From: an uncultured Actinomycetes bacterium
GTDB taxonomy: Bacteria; Actinomycetota; Thermoleophilia; Gaiellales; F1-60-MAGs149
Reading direction: 5' to 3'
Length of the DNA stretch: 64,000 bases
NCBI GenBank assembly: GCA_963779685.1
Contig: CAVZZG010000001.1
Span: 411,458-475,457, forward strand
This document shows positions 2,939-48,998 of this stretch, in pieces. The position numbers were made by a program, and so were the translations under genes. Under the pieces are notes generated by a model that was not told where the DNA came from, made no database searches, and saw nothing but the letters and a program-made list of their open reading frames with translations. The stretch's first letter is position 1. Each line of letters begins with the position of its first letter.

Positions 2939-4578
2939 CGCCGCCGCCAGAACCCGACCCGCCCGCCGGCGAGCCGTTAGCGCAGGACGAGCGCTCGACT
3001 CCCGCAGCGAAGAACCGCAACCGCTGGCTCGCCCTCATCGCGCTGACCATCGGCGTGGCGATGATCATCGTCGACGCGACGATCGTCAATGTCGCGATTC
3101 CGTCGATCATCCGCGACCTCCACATCGGGATCACCCAGGCCGAGTGGGCGAACTCGATCTACTCGCTGGTGTTCGCCGCGCTCCTGATCAGCGTCGGCCG
3201 CATCGGCGACGTGACGGGGCGCCGTCGCGTGTTCATCTGGGGACTCCTGGTCTTCCTCGCCGCGAGCGTGATCACCGCTCTCGCGCCCTCGGGAACCGTC
3301 CTCCTCGCCGGCCGCTTCCTCCAGGGGGTGGGCGGAGCGCTGATCCTCCCATCGACGCTCTCGATCGTGAACGCGACGTTCCGCGGTCGCGAGCGGGCGA
3401 TCGCCTTCGGGATCTGGGGCTCGGTGATCGGCGGGATGGCGGCGCTCGGCCCGCTCGCGGGCGGCTGGTTCGTCACCAACCTGAGCTGGCGCTGGGCCTT
3501 CTACGTCAATCTCCCGATCGGAGCGCTCGCGCTCGCCGGCGCCTTGGTCTACGTCGCCGAGAGCCGCGATCCGGACGCACGGCCCGGGTTCGATCCACCG
3601 GGCGTCGCGCTGTCGACCGCCGGCTTCCTCGGCGTGGTCTTCGGGCTGATCGAGGGGCAGACCTACGGCTGGTGGACCGCCCAGCGCGACTTCCTCGGCG
3701 TTTCTCCCGGTGGGTTGTCGGTGATCCCGTTCGCGTTCGCGCTCGGCGTGCTCTCGCTCGCGGGTTTCGTCCTCGTCGAGCGGCGGCGTGCGCTCGCGGG
3801 ACGTCCGGTGCTCGTCGACTTCGCGCTCTTCCGGATCCCGACCTTCTGCTACGGCAACGTCGCGGTCCTGATCGTCGGGCTCGGCGAGCTCGGGCTGGTC
3901 TTCGTGATCCCGCTCTTCCTGCAGTCGGTGCTCGGGCTCTCGGCCTTCCACACCGGGCTCGTGCTGACCGCTCTCGCCGGGGGCGCGTTCCTCGCGGGCG
4001 GGCTCGCCGCGCCGCTCACCCGCAAGATCGGGCCCCACCGGGTCGTGCAGCTCGGGCTCGCGATCGAGGTCGTCGGCATCGTCGCCGTCGGCCTCACGTT
4101 CTCCGCCGATCGCCCCGCCTGGCAGTTCTGCCCGCAGCTCTTCGTCTACGGGATCGGCGTCGGGTTCGCGACGGCGCAGCTGACGAGCCTCATCCTCGTC
4201 GACGTGCCCAGCGCCCAGTCCGGCGAGGGATCGGGGATCCAGAGCACGTCGAGGCAGGTCGGCTCAGCGCTCGGGATCGCGATCCTCGGCACCGCGCTCG
4301 CGAGCGGGCTCGCCTCCGGCACCAGCGCTCGCCTCGAAGCAGTCCCGTCGATCCCGCCTCCACAGCGCGCGGCCATCACGGCCGCCGTCGAGCGGAGCGG
4401 CGGAGCGGTTCTGCCCGCCTTCCGCCGCTCGCCACAGCTCCAGCCTGCGGTCGCGCCGGTCGAGGAGGCGTTCGTGGCGAGCGCGCGACGAGCCGCCTTC
4501 ATCGCCGCCGCGTTCGTCCTGGTCGGTCTCGTGGCCGCGTTCAGGCTACGGCCCGGCGGACTGGATGGGCCCGAATAG
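2935..4578 (+). CDS. MFS transporter, DHA2 (EmrB/QacA) subfamily
   Basis: In-frame ATG 2935 inside track ORF 2170..4578. WLALIALTIGVAMIIVDATIVNVAIPSI and GRIGDVTGRRRVF motifs, many TM segments. ATGA overlap 2935-2938. Confidence 0.9.
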   Translation: MTPPPEPDPPAGEPLAQDERSTPAAKNRNRWLALIALTIGVAMIIVDATIVNVAIPSIIRDLHIGITQAEWANSIYSLVFAALLISVGRIGDVTGRRRVFIWGLLVFLAASVITALAPSGTVLLAGRFLQGVGGALILPSTLSIVNATFRGRERAIAFGIWGSVIGGMAALGPLAGGWFVTNLSWRWAFYVNLPIGALALAGALVYVAESRDPDARPGFDPPGVALSTAGFLGVVFGLIEGQTYGWWTAQRDFLGVSPGGLSVIPFAFALGVLSLAGFVLVERRRALAGRPVLVDFALFRIPTFCYGNVAVLIVGLGELGLVFVIPLFLQSVLGLSAFHTGLVLTALAGGAFLAGGLAAPLTRKIGPHRVVQLGLAIEVVGIVAVGLTFSADRPAWQFCPQLFVYGIGVGFATAQLTSLILVDVPSAQSGEGSGIQSTSRQVGSALGIAILGTALASGLASGTSARLEAVPSIPPPQRAAITAAVERSGGAVLPAFRRSPQLQPAVAPVEEAFVASARRAAFIAAAFVLVGLVAAFRLRPGGLDGPE

Positions 4579-4649
4579 CCTCACAGCCGCGGGCCTGCGG
4601 CCGCCGCGCTGGCCTGCCCGGGTGGGTGGTGCTGTACATTTCGGCCTCT

Positions 4650-4844
4650 ATGCGTCTCACCTTCGCCTATCTCGACGCCGGCTCGGTCAGCATGTTCCTG
4701 ACGGCGGTCGCGGGCGGGGTCGCGGGCGTCGCCGTCTTCGTCAAGAGCTATGCCCGACGGCTGACGGGCCGGGTGCTGCGACGACCGGTCGACGCCGCCG
4801 AGCTGTCGCCAACGCCCGAGTCGCAGGCGCCCGAGCAGGGGTGA
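4650..4844 (+). CDS. small single-TM protein (hypothetical)
   Basis: ATG 4650 in the tail of track ORF 3144..4844: MRLTFAYLDAGSVSMFLTAVAGGVAGVAVFVKSYARRL.. then a charged tail. Its stop overlaps GTG 4841 of the next gene (GTGA). No family recognised; weak SD. Confidence 0.4.
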   Translation: MRLTFAYLDAGSVSMFLTAVAGGVAGVAVFVKSYARRLTGRVLRRPVDAAELSPTPESQAPEQG

Positions 4845-6247
4845 CCGCGCCGGATCCGGGTTCGTTCCGCGATCCGACGGGCCAGGTAGCCGTCAGCGAC
4901 GGCCGCGTGCTGCGCCTGCTGAGCGAGCGGGGGGCCGCTGACGCTCGTGCCGCCCTTGCGGCGCCGAGCGTGTCGGCCTCGATCGAGCGGGGCGATGTGG
5001 TCGGCACTGCGTGGGTGGAGCCACATGACGGGCCGGCGGAGCTTGCGGATGGTGCGGCGGTCGCGGCGGTGCTCGAGCATCCCCGGCTGCCGTTCGTCTC
5101 CTACCCGTACGAGTGGACGTTCGCGATGCTGCGCGACGCTGCATTGCTGACGTTGCGCCTGCTGCGCGAGACGGCGGCCGACGGCGTCTCGCTCAAGGAC
5201 GCGACCCCGTACAACGTGCAGTTCCGCGGTACGCGGGCGACCTTCATCGACGTCGGCTCCTTCGAGCCCGCGGCGGCGTCGGACCCGTGGTTCGGGCGGG
5301 ATCAGTTCTACCAGCTCTTCCTCTATCCCCTCATGCTCCAGGCCTATGCCGGCGCGGCCTTCCAACCCTGGCTGCGCGGGTCGCTCGAAGGCATCACCGC
5401 GCCGGAGCTCGACGGGATCCTGGCCGGCGCTCACGTCGGCTGGCGCAAGGGGCGGCTCGTGCACGTCAAGGCGACGGCCGCCGCGGCGCGCAAGCTGCGG
5501 ACGCGGACCGAGGCCGTCGAGGTCGAGACGCGCCGGCGCGGCATGTCCCGCGAGCTGCTCGTCGCGCAGTGGAAAGGGATCGAGCGCCTGGTGACGGGGC
5601 TCGAGTGGGAGGAGTCGCGCAGCGTCTGGAGCGAGTACGGCGCTCGCGGCCACTATGCGGACGGCGAGCTCCACGCGAAGGAGTGCTTCGTCGGGCGCGT
5701 GGCCGGCGCGCGGCAGCGGTCACTTGCCTACGACCTCGGCGCCAACGACGGCCGGTTCGCGCGGATCGCGCTCGAGCACAGCGACTACGTCATCGCCGCC
5801 GACGCCGATCGCCTCGTCGTCGACCGGCTGTACCGCGAGCTTCGCGCCCAGGGCGAGGAGCGCATCCAGCCACTGGCGGTCGATCTCGCCGATCCGTCGC
5901 CGGGGCTCGGCTGGGGCGGGGTCGAGCGGACATCGTTCACCGATCGCCAGCGGCCCGACCTGGTGCTCTACCTGGCGGTCGTCCACCACCTTGCGATCGG
6001 CCGTAACGTGCCCGTGGCGATGCAGCTCGACGCGTTGGCCCGGCTGGGCGGCGAGGTCGTGTTCGAGTTCCCGACCGAGGACGACCCCAAGGTGCGCGAG
6101 CTCCTGCTGCAGAAGCGCACCGGCCTGTTCGACGGCTACCGGCTCGACCACGTCGACGCCGCCGTCGCGGAGCGCTTCGAGGTACGGGCTCGTGAGGTGC
6201 TCGACGGCGGAACCCGCGTCCTCTACCACCTGTCCCCGTGGCGCTGA
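4841..6247 (+). CDS. two-domain protein, class I SAM-dependent methyltransferase-like (function unknown)
   Basis: GTG 4841 inside track ORF 4565..6247. N-terminal DPGSFRDPTG..FVSYPYEWTF..LKDATPYNVQF..FIDVGSFE domain plus a C-terminal Rossmann-like part (AYDLGANDGRF). Annotation recalled from similar proteins, not verified. Confidence 0.6.
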   Translation: MTAPDPGSFRDPTGQVAVSDGRVLRLLSERGAADARAALAAPSVSASIERGDVVGTAWVEPHDGPAELADGAAVAAVLEHPRLPFVSYPYEWTFAMLRDAALLTLRLLRETAADGVSLKDATPYNVQFRGTRATFIDVGSFEPAAASDPWFGRDQFYQLFLYPLMLQAYAGAAFQPWLRGSLEGITAPELDGILAGAHVGWRKGRLVHVKATAAAARKLRTRTEAVEVETRRRGMSRELLVAQWKGIERLVTGLEWEESRSVWSEYGARGHYADGELHAKECFVGRVAGARQRSLAYDLGANDGRFARIALEHSDYVIAADADRLVVDRLYRELRAQGEERIQPLAVDLADPSPGLGWGGVERTSFTDRQRPDLVLYLAVVHHLAIGRNVPVAMQLDALARLGGEVVFEFPTEDDPKVRELLLQKRTGLFDGYRLDHVDAAVAERFEVRAREVLDGGTRVLYHLSPWR

Positions 6248-45846: not shown

Positions 45847-47159
45847 CAGCCGCACAGCCTTCGGGCTGCCAGCGCGATGCCCTGGGCGCAGTGCACGAGG
45901 TCGTCGATCGCGACGTGCTCGCCGACCGTGTGCGCCCAGTCGATGTGGCGAGGGCCGTACATCAGGGCGGGCGTTCCGGTCTCGAGCGCGAACGTGGCGC
46001 CGTCGTACCACGACCCGAGGCCGCCCAGCGTGAGCGGGAGCCCGAGCGCCGCGTTGGCCTCGAGCAGCGCCTCGACCACGGGCGAGCCGGTCGGCGTCTC
46101 CCAGGGGTTCACCTCGGTGTCCCAGACGAACGTCGGCGGGTGCTCGGCGAGCCAGGGGTCGGCATCGCACCACCGGCGCAGGTAGGTCTCCACCTCCCGG
46201 CGGACGTCGCCCGTCCAGCCGGAGGCGTCGGCCTGGCAGGGCAGGATCAGCACCGCCAGGTTCAGCTCGGCGCGGTTGGGGATGGTCACCATCCAGCCCG
46301 CGTCGGCGTGGAACGACGTGCAGACGATGTCCGGCGGTGCCAGCAGCGGATGGTGCGACCACGTGCGGGTCCGCCACTCGGTGCGCAGCCGCTCGGCACC
46401 CGCGAGCAGATGACGCGCCTTGTCGATCGCGTTCACGGCGCCGCCGTCGGCGAAGTGGGCGTGCTCCTGCTCGGCGTGCCCGGACCGACCAGGCACCGTG
46501 ACGGTCGCGTACACCGATCCGCGGCATGCCGGCCAGACCTCCAGCCCGCTCGGCTCCGGCACGATGGCGAAGTCGGCCGCGACCCCGTGGCGGGCGCACG
46601 CCAGCGCCCCGACCCCGCTCGACTCCTCGTCGGTGTTGGTGCACACCACGATATCGCCGCGCAACCCGCCGCTCGCGGCCAGCACCTCGGCGGCCACGAC
46701 CATCGCCGCGATGCCGCCCTTCATGTCGCACGAGCCGCGCCCGTAGATCTCGCCATCCCTGACCTGCGGGTCGAACGGGTCGTGCTCCCAGCCGTCCTCG
46801 ACGCGCGCGGTGACCACGTCGATGTGGCCGTTCAGCAGCAGCGACCGGCCGCCGCCGGAGCCGCGGAACCGGGCCTGAAGCTGCGGCCTGCCGTCGAACC
46901 CGATGCCACCGGGGGGGTTGAGCGGGTGGTCGGCGACGTCGGCCGGCGAGGGCTCCCAGACCTCCACCTCGGCCCCGGCGGCGCGCAGCCGGGCGCCGAG
47001 GAACTGCTGGAGGGCCGCCTCGGCCCGGGCCGGCGAGTCCGGTGCCGGCCGGCTCTGGGTGTCGAACCGGATCAGGTCGCACGCGAGCGCGGCGATGTCT
47101 TCGCGGCGGGCGGCGATGCGATCGGCGAGCGCTCGGTCTTCGGGTGCGAGGTTCGTCAA
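45846..47159 (-). CDS. M20 family metallopeptidase / ArgE-DapE-type deacylase
   Basis: Track ORF (TTG start, TTGA overlap with the upstream gene). [25 protein letters not shown]. Confidence 0.8.
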
Positions 47160-47659
47160 GGAGTGAATTGGAACGTGAACATGCGGTGGGCGTCAATGCG
47201 GGCGTAGGGATTGGTCTCGGCCCACTCGATCCAGTCGGCGCCGTAGCGCGGCGCGTACACCTCGGTCAGGCAGGCCCGGAAGCCGGCCACCGCAGTGTCG
47301 CGCAGATCGACCTCCCGGGCGGTGCCGTGCACGGTGACGGCGAACTCCTCGCCCTCGAGGTGGGTCGCGCTGACCGCCGGCCGCGAGCGGATGTGGCGGA
47401 AGCGCAGCGAGTCCGGGCCGGAGCCGAACCAGAACGCGCCCCGGTAGAACACGCCGTCCACCGGCCCGACGATCGGCCTGCCGTCGGCCGTCGAGGTCGC
47501 CAGCGCCAGCAGCCGCATCCCCTGCAGCCGCCCGGCCAGCGCCGCGGCGCCGACGCGGCGCTCGGGCGTCACGATCCCCCGCAGGTGCGCCCCGGCCACG
47601 TCGTAGCTGGCATCGAGGAGCGCCTGCAGGCGCTCGAGATCATCGGCCGTCTCACGCAC
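47156..47659 (-). CDS. pyridoxamine 5'-phosphate oxidase family protein
   Basis: GTG 47659 inside track ORF 47156..47755; upstream of it the ORF runs into the repeat island. ..LLALATSTADGRPIVGPVDGVFYRGAFWFGS.. Confidence 0.7.
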   Translation of the reverse strand: MRETADDLERLQALLDASYDVAGAHLRGIVTPERRVGAAALAGRLQGMRLLALATSTADGRPIVGPVDGVFYRGAFWFGSGPDSLRFRHIRSRPAVSATHLEGEEFAVTVHGTAREVDLRDTAVAGFRACLTEVYAPRYGADWIEWAETNPYARIDAHRMFTFQFTP

Positions 47660-47676
47660 GCCGCGGCAGCATACGG

Positions 47677-47704
47677 TTTTCGCGGCACGGCACGCCACGT
47701 CGCA
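47677..47704 (+). repeat. hairpin-repeat family, copy 1 (core only, local stem degenerate)
   Basis: Core TTTTCGCGGCACGGCACGCCACGTCGCA. 25/28 identical to copy 2. Followed by a separate 7-bp hairpin, CGCACGC(47701-07)/GCGTGCG(47714-20). Confidence 0.7.
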
Positions 47705-47737
47705 CGCCGGTCCGCGTGCGCCTTCCGTGACACCCCT

Positions 47738-47779
47738 CTGCGGAGTTCGCCGCACGGCACGCCACGTCGCACTCCGCAG
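47738..47779 (+). repeat. hairpin-repeat family, copy 2
   Basis: CTGCGGAG-TTCGCCGCACGGCACGCCACGTCGCA-CTCCGCAG: a perfect 8-bp stem around the conserved core. Confidence 0.8.
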
Positions 47780-47885
47780 TCGGAGGGCGTTCGGTCACGT
47801 CTGGCGCGGCGGCCGTGATCTCCGCTCCAGGTGCGCGCGAGGGGTCTGACCTGGAATCGATCACGTCGAACGCACGCGGGCTCAC

Positions 47886-47920
47886 CTGCGGCGTTGCGTG
47901 CCGTGCCGCGAAATCCGCAG
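47886..47920 (-). repeat. hairpin-repeat family, copy 3 (inverted orientation)
   Basis: The reverse complement reads CTGCGG-ATTTCGCGGCACGGCACGCAACG-CCGCAG: a 6-bp stem. The core is 24/28 identical to copy 2. Confidence 0.8.
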
Positions 47921-47980
47921 CCGACCCCGCGCAGGGCCGACGGGTTCCGCACCGCGTGGTGCCGAAGCCGCGCCGCGGGT

Positions 47981-48021
47981 CGCTTGCGGCGTTGCGTGCC
48001 GTGCCGTGAAATCCGCAAGCG
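47981..48021 (-). repeat. hairpin-repeat family, copy 4 (inverted orientation)
   Basis: The reverse complement reads CGCTTGCGG-ATTTCACGGCACGGCACGCAACG-CCGCAAGCG: a 9-bp stem. The core is 27/28 identical to copy 3. It begins 4 nt after the DUF1918 stop codon. Confidence 0.8.
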
Positions 48022-48025
48022 CCGG

Positions 48026-48232
48026 TTAGTGGTGTTCGACTTCCTGGCGGATGGTGGCGTCGTTGGACGGGTAGTAGATCGACTCGTGCCCGTCGTCCCA
48101 GCGCAGCCTGTAGTGGGCGTGCTCGCCCTCGCCGAGGACTTCCAGGATCTCGGCCGAGCGGCGCTTGTCGTGGAGGTTCCGCCCCTCGATGACGAGGGTG
48201 TCTCCGGGCTTGCCGTCGTGGATCGAGGCCAT
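48026..48232 (-). CDS. DUF1918 domain protein
   Basis: ATG 48232 inside track ORF 48026..48286, with AAGGAG 6 nt upstream. MASIHDGKPGDTLVIEG..RSAEILEVLGEGEHAHYRLRWDDGHESIYYPSNDA matches the DUF1918 pattern. Confidence 0.8.
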   Translation of the reverse strand: MASIHDGKPGDTLVIEGRNLHDKRRSAEILEVLGEGEHAHYRLRWDDGHESIYYPSNDATIRQEVEHH

Positions 48233-48276
48233 GCGCATCTCCTTGCCTTCTGTGCGCATGGTCGCGCCAGGGTGAC

Positions 48277-48313
48277 CCCGCAGCATCGGCGAGAGCCCCG
48301 CCGATGCTGCGGG
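48277..48313 (-). terminator. perfect 15-bp stem hairpin (possible U-tract-less terminator or attenuator)
   Basis: CCCGCAGCATCGGCG (48277-48291), loop AGAGCCC, CGCCGATGCTGCGGG (48299-48313). It lies between the secreted-protein gene stop (48332) and the DUF1918 start (48232). On the minus strand a TTTT run precedes the stem rather than following it. Confidence 0.35.
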
Positions 48314-48331
48314 AAAACCCGATGTGCGGTG

Positions 48332-48919
48332 CTAGTGGGTGACCGCGGTGTTCGTCAGCGATCCGACCTGGATGGCGATGATCTTGCCGTCGCCGGCACG
48401 GATCTGGCTGCCGGCGGGGGTCGCGATCTCCAGGGTCACGTTGCCCGGCGCGGCGAACGTGTGGACGACCTCGTTGTTGCACGGCCACTCCCCGATGCCG
48501 GGCGTGACGACGTACTGGGTGTCGAAGTCGCCGCCGGCGCGCAGGGTGCACTGCGGGGTGTGTGGGCCCGAGATGTCGTCCATGGGCACCTTGCTGAAGA
48601 TCACGTACTTCCCGGCCACCGGGATGTGGAGCGTCATGATCACGTTCGTCGCGTTGGCGGTCAGCACGGGCGGCGAGATCGTGTTGCGGTAGGCCGCGTA
48701 CGCGACGTTCCCCTGGCCCCTGGCCATGTCGGCGGCCTTGAGCGAGTGGTCCTTGACCTTCGCGCTCGTCACCGCGTTGTTCTTCAACTGCTTCGTGCCC
48801 ACGCTGTTGTTCGGCAGGGCGAGGGCCGCGTAGCTCGTGCCGCCGAGGGCGACGAACAGCGCGAGCGTCGCCACCGCACTCGCGTACGAGGGGCGTACGC
48901 GCCGGATCCGGTCCTTCAT
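48332..48919 (-). CDS. secreted hypothetical protein (paralogue of 15678..16196)
   Basis: ATG 48919 inside track ORF 48332..48985, with AGGAGG upstream. Signal peptide ..AVATLALFVALGGTSYA, then LPNNSVGTKQLKNNAVTSAKVKDHSLKAADM. Confidence 0.75.
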   Translation of the reverse strand: MKDRIRRVRPSYASAVATLALFVALGGTSYAALALPNNSVGTKQLKNNAVTSAKVKDHSLKAADMARGQGNVAYAAYRNTISPPVLTANATNVIMTLHIPVAGKYVIFSKVPMDDISGPHTPQCTLRAGGDFDTQYVVTPGIGEWPCNNEVVHTFAAPGNVTLEIATPAGSQIRAGDGKIIAIQVGSLTNTAVTH

Positions 48920-48998
48920 GGAGACCTCCTGTTGGGAGCGGGTCCCGCACAGTACCCGGCGGGTGTCGCGCCACCCGCCGGGCACCGTGTTCCCACCG

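Follow-up and report, generated by a model that had tools for sequence, protein, structure and literature searches.

The window analysed in this study is a stretch of 64,000 nucleotides (nt) from an uncultured soil Actinomycetes bacterium of the Gaiellales. On its minus strand, a DUF1918 gene and a PNPOx-like gene are separated by an island of 366 nt (47660-48025) that has four copies of a repeat unit of 33 nt, arranged in > > < < order (+ + - -) between positions 47672 and 48017; each unit contains a near-invariant core of 21 nt. The island spans the distance from the stop codon of the DUF1918 gene (48026-48028) to the likely -10 box of the PNPOx-like gene, which starts with a GTG at 47659 and is followed by an M20 peptidase gene, glgC and glgA. 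It is the longest stretch of the window without coding (GC3) periodicity, and a second such stretch, at 4201-5040, is accounted for by a small open reading frame; the first-pass annotation, made from the letters alone, was thus right to call the island the only long non-coding gap. The same locus is available from a sister strain (L033/L048, a 47.9-kb metagenome contig of the Joint Genome Institute (JGI), 96-97% identical to the window over 20 kb), where the island is by far the biggest gap among the JGI gene calls, and from another JGI metagenome contig, L032, that begins inside the first unit (c1). The genes and the units are as follows; bit scores are those of a profile of the unit (model R1).

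48026..48232, minus strand: DUF1918 gene (PF08940), upstream neighbour; P0121 is an identical protein
47156..47659, minus strand: PNPOx-like gene (PF01243), downstream neighbour; GTG start, 167 amino acids (P0129), homologues of like length
47672..47704, plus strand: unit c1, 33 nt, core 47679-47699; 56 bits; 5' end TACGG instead of TGCGG; also in L032 and L033
47739..47771, plus strand: unit c2, core 47746-47766 with one mismatch (G>C at 47751); 49.8 bits
47887..47919, minus strand: unit c3, core 47892-47912; 55.7 bits
47985..48017, minus strand: unit c4, core 47990-48010 with one mismatch at 48007; 54.4 bits

The four repeats are real and not a product of chance. The 22-nt core pattern TTCGCGGCACGGCACGC, searched on both strands with three mismatches tolerated, has exactly four hits in the window, while 0.04 are expected and none of 100 shuffled sequences reaches four; with R1 and all filters off, the four copies score 50-56 bits and the next hit in the window 11.5 bits. 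Position and orientation of the copies, as well as the absence of a second site from the window, are therefore as first annotated. The conserved core had been given as 28 nt long with 24-27 identities between copies; we measured 23-27 identities over these 28 positions, and the conserved unit extends to 33 nt. From an alignment of the four copies of the window with the four orthologous copies of the sister strain, the consensus of the unit is T[GA]CGG[AT][TG]TTC[GA]C[GC]GCACGGCACGC[CA]ACG[TC]CGC[AG].

The copies form two nested inverted pairs. The arms of the inner pair (c2/c3) are complementary at 88% over 34 nt and those of the outer pair (c1/c4) at 82% over 39 nt; the inner doublet is 183 nt long with a spacer of 115 nt, the outer one 352 nt. 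Some bases are specific to an arm (C/T in c1 and c2, A/C in c3 and c4). Resemblance between the flanking blocks ('tails') is of a different kind: the spacer behind c1 is similar to the block beside c3 (common to both is CCGCGTGCG..TTC..CGTGA), a mosaic in which c1 resembles c3 without any grouping into left and right. Both outer tips are flanked by AGC[A/G] over 3-4 nt, and an ACCCC is found near the inner pair, offset and absent from L033. The hexamer CACGTC is found on the plus strand at 47695, 47762, 47796 and 47862, the four occurrences originally noted; two of these four sites are lost in the sister strain. The parts of the island between the units are:

47705..47737, no strand: spacer between c1 and c2 (tail 1), 2 differences in 33 nt between the strains
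47780..47858, no strand: central filler between the inverted pairs, 16 of 78 positions different over 47781-47858; no indel, compensated pair or TA dinucleotide
47859..47886, no strand: block beside c3 (tail 3), conserved, 2 differences in 28 nt

The idea that the c4-c3 spacer holds the remains of a fifth unit was rejected, as the alignment is not significant (84 of 1000 shuffles reach its score). The island is also no CRISPR array: the copies are in two opposite pairs, the spacers are orthologous between the strains with point changes only and there are no cas genes nearby. An invertible promoter was likewise rejected, with a central segment that has no TA and hence no TANNNT, the same orientation in both strains and no recombinase nearby.

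In L033 all four copies are present in unchanged order, with the same spacings of 67 and 98 nt as in the window, and only one indel, located at the island's outer edge, is found in the 366 nt. The substitutions are unevenly distributed (window versus L033):

21-nt cores: 2 of 84 positions differ
33-nt units: 7 of 132 differ
island outside the cores: 40 of 282 differ (14%)
promoter-proximal half with c1 and c2: 8 of 121 differ
central filler: 16 of 78 differ
c4-c3 spacer: 14 of 65 differ
third codon positions of the flanking genes: 5-10% differ
a gap between convergent genes: 26% differ
a gap of 20 nt: 20% differ

The difference between the cores and the rest of the island is significant (Fisher p=0.001), and both changes within the cores are departures from the consensus in the lineage of the window, while all four cores of L033 are intact. 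We conclude from this comparison, which has two genomes only, that the cores and, less so, the promoter-proximal half are probably under purifying selection and that the filler evolves close to neutrally. The substitutions have no periodicity of 3 nt. A decayed gene was considered as the origin of the island and rejected: the substitutions are distributed 11/9/12 over the three phases, there is no GC3 periodicity and no protein relative was found.

According to the earlier description, the loop of a local hairpin is conserved and its stem varies, with compensatory changes. This description does not hold. All copies have one common stem of 5 bp (TGCGG/CCGCA) that is invariant and encloses a loop of 23 nt; only the extensions of this stem vary, and their covariation over the eight copies of the two strains is not above that of shuffled sequences (scores of 0.188 versus 0.170; 133 of 500 shuffles attain the observed value). 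In the window, c2 and c3 alone have a significant local hairpin (z-scores of -3.0 and -3.8), and in the sister strain none of the copies has one; the local stem of c2 (47738-47779) exists in the window only. Where the strains differ within the local stems, pairing is disrupted (A>C in c4, G>T in c3, AG>TT in c2), and an inserted T makes the c4 stem longer in L033. What is conserved between the strains is the sequence of 21-33 nt in either orientation and not the local hairpin.

The nested long-range pairing suggested by the first-pass annotation, c4 with c1 and c3 with c2, is by contrast strongly predicted: the z-scores are -4.1 and -4.4 for the window, -8.0 and -7.8 for L033. Both strands fold equally well, hence the structure cannot be assigned to a strand. 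Because of the two arm-specific positions, the long helices contain A.G and C.A mismatches, which both strains have retained; perfect pairing is therefore not the property under selection. Structure is nevertheless conserved to some extent, in other places than the stems of the units: RNAalifold with both strains identified five base pairs that have changed on both sides and are still paired, and four of these are in two small hairpins of the c4-c3 spacer.

47940..47971, minus strand: hairpin Ha in the c4-c3 spacer, compensated changes G-C>C-G at 47968/47943 and U-A>C-G at 47965/47946
47922..47939, minus strand: hairpin Hb in the c4-c3 spacer, compensated changes at 47939/47922 and 47936/47925, in addition G-U>G-C at 47924

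Four compensated pairs in Ha and Hb are reached in only 1 of 300 column shuffles, and all 13 substitutions in these two hairpins are compatible with the structure. The fifth pair (A-U to U-A, 47914/47744) is part of the c3:c2 helix; gene conversion between the inverted copies could equally be its source. The central filler has no compensated pairs.

The promoter-proximal end of the island contains the only TANNNT on the gene strand, which is identical in the window, L032 and L033:

47668..47673, minus strand: TATGCT, read from the sequence as likely -10 box of the PNPOx promoter (leaderless type), 8 nt before the GTG at 47659-47657

The core of c1 begins 5 nt upstream of TATGCT, in the -35 zone. 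In related metagenome-assembled genomes (MAGs; L009-L018, about 30 nt before position 6001), PNPOx starts with TANNNT-N6-GTG directly after the upstream stop codon, a layout of the leaderless type, and the arrangement in the window is TATGCT-N8-GTG; by its sequence and position TATGCT is thus likely to be the -10 box of a leaderless-type promoter. Consensus scans of 47400-48400 identified neither a sigma-70-type promoter nor a terminator with a U-tract, and inspection by eye gave no convincing match to sigma-54 or extracytoplasmic function (ECF)-type promoters or to known actinobacterial operator motifs. At the other end of the island, the local stem of c4 (47982-48021) begins 5 nt after the stop codon of DUF1918. 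Clusters of hairpins without U-tract within about 80 nt of stop codons have been reported as terminators (Gupta and Pal 2021, PMC8355165), and the island resembles them: a row of three to four GC-rich hairpins (c4, Ha, Hb and c3) begins 5 nt past the stop codon, compensated changes preserve the structure of Ha and Hb, and in the same genome a 15-bp hairpin without U-tract also follows the preceding gene. A terminator leaves unexplained, however, the invariant loops of 21 nt and the mirror-image second half beside the downstream promoter.

No further copy of the unit was found outside this locus. R1 found none in 1.5 Mb of other fetched loci, and scans with the exact pattern found none in 185,579 species genomes of GTDB, a collection from which the species itself is absent: a histidine kinase encoded just outside the window has no match above 38% identity, which indicates true absence and not merely masking. 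The pattern hits in GTDB genomes, JGI metagenomes and IMG/VR each stand alone, are incomplete and come from unrelated phyla; none exceeds 28.6 bits, and all are at chance level. Inspection of four of them showed a gene that is duplicated, an N-terminus of antitoxin type, sequence next to the start of a gene and a repeat of another kind from Myxococcales. Blast searches against plasmids and phages gave no relevant match. Six-frame translation of the island identified no protein among 5.8 billion sequences at E-values up to 10. The search of Rfam had no hit in the island, also at E-values up to 10, and no family reached its gathering score anywhere in the window, in agreement with the original statement that the element belongs to no described family. 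Uniqueness of the core and alignment of the region to coding sequence had together been named as what would speak for a decayed gene: the core is unique in all sequence searched, but the region does not align to coding sequence.

The island is also absent from the locus in relatives. By the proteins encoded on the flanks of the island, the window belongs to an uncultured actinobacterium akin to Gaiellales/Thermoleophilia. The closest PNPOx relative among the GTDB genomes is 78% identical, and the PNPOx relatives of this collection have neither a DUF1918 neighbour nor the motif nor an island; there are no analogous islands at the PNPOx locus of relatives. A relative with 81% identity has kept the order PNPOx-M20-glgC-glgA but has GT2/PMT/GtrA genes upstream, with a divergent glycosyltransferase gene and a gap of only 50 nt. 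Where DUF1918 genes occur elsewhere, a convergent response regulator gene follows them and there is no island either. The absence from relatives, together with the altered upstream genes, indicates that the island is species-specific and is located at a synteny breakpoint. A functional link between island and DUF1918 was rejected, as other DUF1918 genes lack the island and the literature gives DUF1918 no role with nucleic acids.

We infer, and consider this robust, that a sequence-specific factor recognises the motif of 21-33 nt, while the surroundings must keep their length and some of their hairpins. The sequence family is undescribed, but its general kind is known: the island is an intergenic cluster of palindromic repeats. 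Our tentative reading is that it is a compound element related to repetitive extragenic palindromic (REP) sequences, to the REP doublets forming hairpins (REPINs) or to MITEs (miniature inverted-repeat transposable elements), with cores recognised by a protein, and that it possibly doubles as a hairpin-cluster terminator or insulator. The first-pass annotation had named a REP/MITE-like element, recognised as a DNA hairpin, or a structured RNA: a REP/MITE-like origin is still the single most likely class, but the specific hairpin model fails. A REPIN is extragenic and consists of two inverted, conserved stretches of about 21 bp around a less conserved spacer for which length and hairpin capacity are critical and in which compensatory changes are common (PMC3116915; bioRxiv 10.1101/2021.07.10.451892). 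We rank a REP/REPIN/MITE-like element first since the island combines what Bertels and Rainey describe for REPINs: conserved cores in opposite orientation, a spacer that varies in sequence but not in length, the capacity to form hairpins, and compensation. The likeness to REP/REPIN sequences (Pseudomonas fluorescens, the bacterial interspersed mosaic elements of E. coli) extends to the extragenic position, inverted cores of about 21 nt, the poorly conserved spacer of fixed length (14-22% of spacer positions differ between the strains), the long hairpin predicted in single-stranded DNA or mRNA, the compensatory changes and a species-specific sequence family. We count in favour of this reading also the beginning of the island 5 nt past a stop codon, the reported terminator activity of U-less hairpin clusters in such positions, the synteny breakpoint, the species-specificity, a strain-specific insertion of 662 nt about 300 nt away and the presence of other intergenic hairpin repeats in related or neighbouring lineages (L010, L027).

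The nested long hairpin of such an element would form in single-stranded DNA or in a transcript that reads through from upstream; its outer helix would be c4:c1 and its inner helix c3:c2, and it would have two small side hairpins. A sequence-specific protein would recognise the near-invariant cores of 21 nt, a part that in REPINs is played by a REP-associated tyrosine transposase (RAYT), and the filler would need only a constant length and the ability to pair. The element would presumably be mobile, and at this locus it would probably also serve its host as a hairpin-cluster 3' end or as an insulator between the DUF1918 and PNPOx-like genes; it may at the same time supply the -35 zone of the PNPOx-like promoter.

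Several observations weigh against a REP/REPIN/MITE-like element. REPINs are present in tens to hundreds of dispersed extragenic copies, with a single-copy RAYT (HUH/Y1) gene that is usually flanked by REPINs, but R1 identified no further copy in about 69 kb of the species (the 64-kb window and 4.7 kb), where a dense REP family would be visible. Genes with Pfam hits in the 10 kb on each side of the island encode no transposase, RAYT or recombinase domain, and none was seen on the rest of the fetched sister contig; REPIN-RAYT systems have been described mainly in Proteobacteria, and we know of no RAYT for this clade. REPIN doublets are about 100 bp long, with less than 130 bp between the REPs, and each REP is a palindrome of about 14 bp. 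The doublets of the island have 183 and 352 nt, and a compact palindrome of about 14 bp is lacking: the stem has 5 bp and the hairpin is lost in the sister strain. Clusters of REPINs are tandem arrays of doublets (PMC3116915), > < > <, in contrast to the nested > > < < order found here. Finally, conservation of the cores at an orthologous locus requires selection by the host, and a locus-specific function fits this at least equally well.

MITEs of bacteria (Correia, ERIC/IRU, RUP, BOX) are intergenic, 100-400 bp long, have terminal inverted repeats, are found between co-directional genes and, once transcribed, form long hairpins; a MITE can be a source of promoters or of sites for RNA processing or stability. 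MITEs are also flanked by target-site duplications, occur in several copies and have a related autonomous insertion sequence with the same ends. The island shares with them the terminal inverted repeats, the intergenic place and the co-directional flanking genes, but it has two subterminal repeats per end; neither other copies nor a parent insertion sequence were found in the collections searched, and around the outer tips there is only the AGC[A/G] of 3-4 nt.

Another explanation is an array of sites on double-stranded DNA that is specific to this locus, which we regard as possible but less probable than a REP/REPIN/MITE-like element. A putative protein would bind the four sites of 21-33 nt, with c1 overlapping the -35 region of the PNPOx/M20/glgC promoter; the distal inverted sites would allow cooperative binding or looping, resulting in repression, activation or insulation from DUF1918 read-through, and Ha and Hb would be the DUF1918 terminator. 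Uniqueness of the motif in all sequence searched, selection on the orthologous copies and the overlap with the promoter, where the c1 core precedes TATGCT-N8-GTG (TANNNT-N6-GTG in relatives), are explained better in this way than by a REP/REPIN element. Conservation of sequence and not of local structure in both orientations, core changes that are all departures from consensus in the window lineage with L033 intact, the two fixed spacings and the lower divergence of the promoter-proximal half compared with the central filler are all consistent with it. Transcription factors, however, rarely have non-palindromic sites of 33 nt, a search of the 10 kb on each side gave no regulator gene, the compensated hairpins need a separate explanation and, with the island absent from all relatives of the operon, the regulation would have to be very young. 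A rather unlikely form of a single-locus device, kept by selection and without any dispersed family, has the four non-palindromic 33-nt units as docking sites for a putative protein of Thermoleophilia or Gaiellales; the resulting looped or cruciform complex would insulate DUF1918 and control the promoter of the PNPOx, M20 and glycogen genes, or could even work in the manner of inverted Ter sites, as a polar barrier. Single-locus, opposed groups of non-palindromic sites are known from operator and iteron arrays with looping and from the inverted Ter sites of B. subtilis and R6K, and the island, too, has its sites at one locus beside a promoter; the GC skew in the 64 kb, however, shows no sign of a terminus, and the cognate protein is only putative. 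A replication terminus was rejected on its own account: the skew is uninformative over the 64 kb, with no cumulative maximum. Doubtful too, and slightly more so than the protein-bound array on double-stranded DNA, is a structured RNA (a 3' untranslated region of DUF1918, a leader or a separate small RNA) in which the loops of c4 and c3 pair with c2 and c1 to form long helices, acting as an RNase III or stability element or as a switch at the PNPOx start. Read-through would transcribe the island, given that the flanking genes are on the same strand, and the very low folding z-scores, the compensated pairs of Ha, Hb and the c3:c2 helix and the 13 of 13 structure-compatible substitutions in Ha and Hb are in favour of an RNA. 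But the two strands fold equally, with no strand signal, Rfam has no match, the four cores are identical without pairwise covariation, the A.G and C.A mismatches persist in both strains and the central domain has no compensation; moreover, the PNPOx-like gene appears to own a leaderless-type promoter inside c1, and covariation statistics from two genomes are thin.

We consider it very unlikely that the island is a miniature two-ended transposon with several transposase sites per end (Tn7, Mu or Tn402 type), or a MITE inserted in its own copy. The layout > > < < is canonical for ends with multiple sites: the TnsB sites of Tn7 and the MuA sites of Mu are non-palindromic, 20-30 bp long, direct within an end and inverted between ends. 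Units that begin with 5'-TGCGG, a c4 tip that reads ...CCGCA-3', arm-specific bases common to both copies of an arm and AGC[A/G] at both outer tips would also fit. The tip of c1, however, is TA and not the terminal TG, and the island has no cargo, transposase gene or 5-bp duplication; there is no convincing target-site duplication (L033 lacks the ACCCC found near the inner pair), and the similarity of the tails ignores the left/right grouping, with c1 resembling c3. No transposase is encoded within 10 kb on each side, related ends were not found in plasmids, phages, IMG/VR or GTDB genomes, and a dead element would not hold its cores under selection. Least probable of all is a neutral by-product of tandem and inverted duplications at a rearrangement junction, with copies kept alike by gene conversion. 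It has in its favour that the locus is a rearrangement hot spot, that the tail similarity is a mosaic and that gene conversion may be behind the A/T change that c2 and c3 underwent in parallel, but it fails to account for cores with 2 differences in 84 positions when the rest of the island has 14% and the two least constrained gaps of this genome pair 20-26%. Zero fixed core changes are unlikely even if the copies are treated as one family (p about 0.01-0.05, an estimate), the arm-specific differences indicate that conversion between the arms is rare, and the compensated hairpins argue for selection.

If the island is REPIN-like, replicators made of hairpin repeats reach a deep uncultured actinobacterial lineage, with a nested layout and a long non-palindromic core; if it is locus-specific, it marks a DNA- or RNA-binding factor that controls a leaderless promoter before genes of glycogen metabolism. 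The practical value is modest either way. The locus offers a clean two-strain example of constrained cores, near-neutral filler and small hairpins that evolve by compensation, and R1 is a ready profile for the repeat unit.

Some minor features were observed near the island. The segment of 662 nt at 48335-48996 is missing from L033, and the junctions of this indel read TAGCG and TAGCA; it carries a hypothetical gene (48332-48919, minus strand, 195 amino acids) with no Pfam hit, and by eye the protein has a hydrophobic, membrane-anchor-like stretch at its N-terminus. Between the preceding gene and DUF1918, at 48277-48313, is a perfect GC-rich hairpin of 15 bp (CCCGCAGCATCGGCG-N7-CGCCGATGCTGCGGG), with stems identical in L033 and only the loop different; it is probably a terminator without U-tract. 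This hairpin, unrelated to the island, is the cause of weak microRNA-like Rfam hits at 48266-48322, which were discarded.

Other observations come from the fetched loci. Two of the chance hits of the pattern, L002 5083-5104 and L004 7562-7583, are on one Dehalococcoidia contig and are explained by the duplicated gene: they are two inverted, near-identical copies of a coding segment. A Myxococcales MAG contig (L003, 1630-2800) has at least six copies of a dispersed repeat, GGCATGCCGTGCCGAGAGGACCTGCCTGTG, that has CGTGCCGTGCC in common with the core, apparently by chance. In a Thermomicrobiales MAG (L027, 5630-5843), an unrelated REP-like cluster is located upstream of the organism's own PNPOx homologue; its repeat, GGTCGACACATCGGGCGACCCCTACGG, has inverted copies of 32 nt, with 94% identity and at a distance of 150 nt, and there is a third variant as well. 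A MAG labelled 'uncultured Actinomycetes' (L010), with a PNPOx gene 77% identical to that of the window, has at 1859-1990, after a gene, about five head-to-tail copies of a hairpin unit of 20 nt, GGGGCCTGGCCCCGGTTCTT, one of them irregularly spaced.

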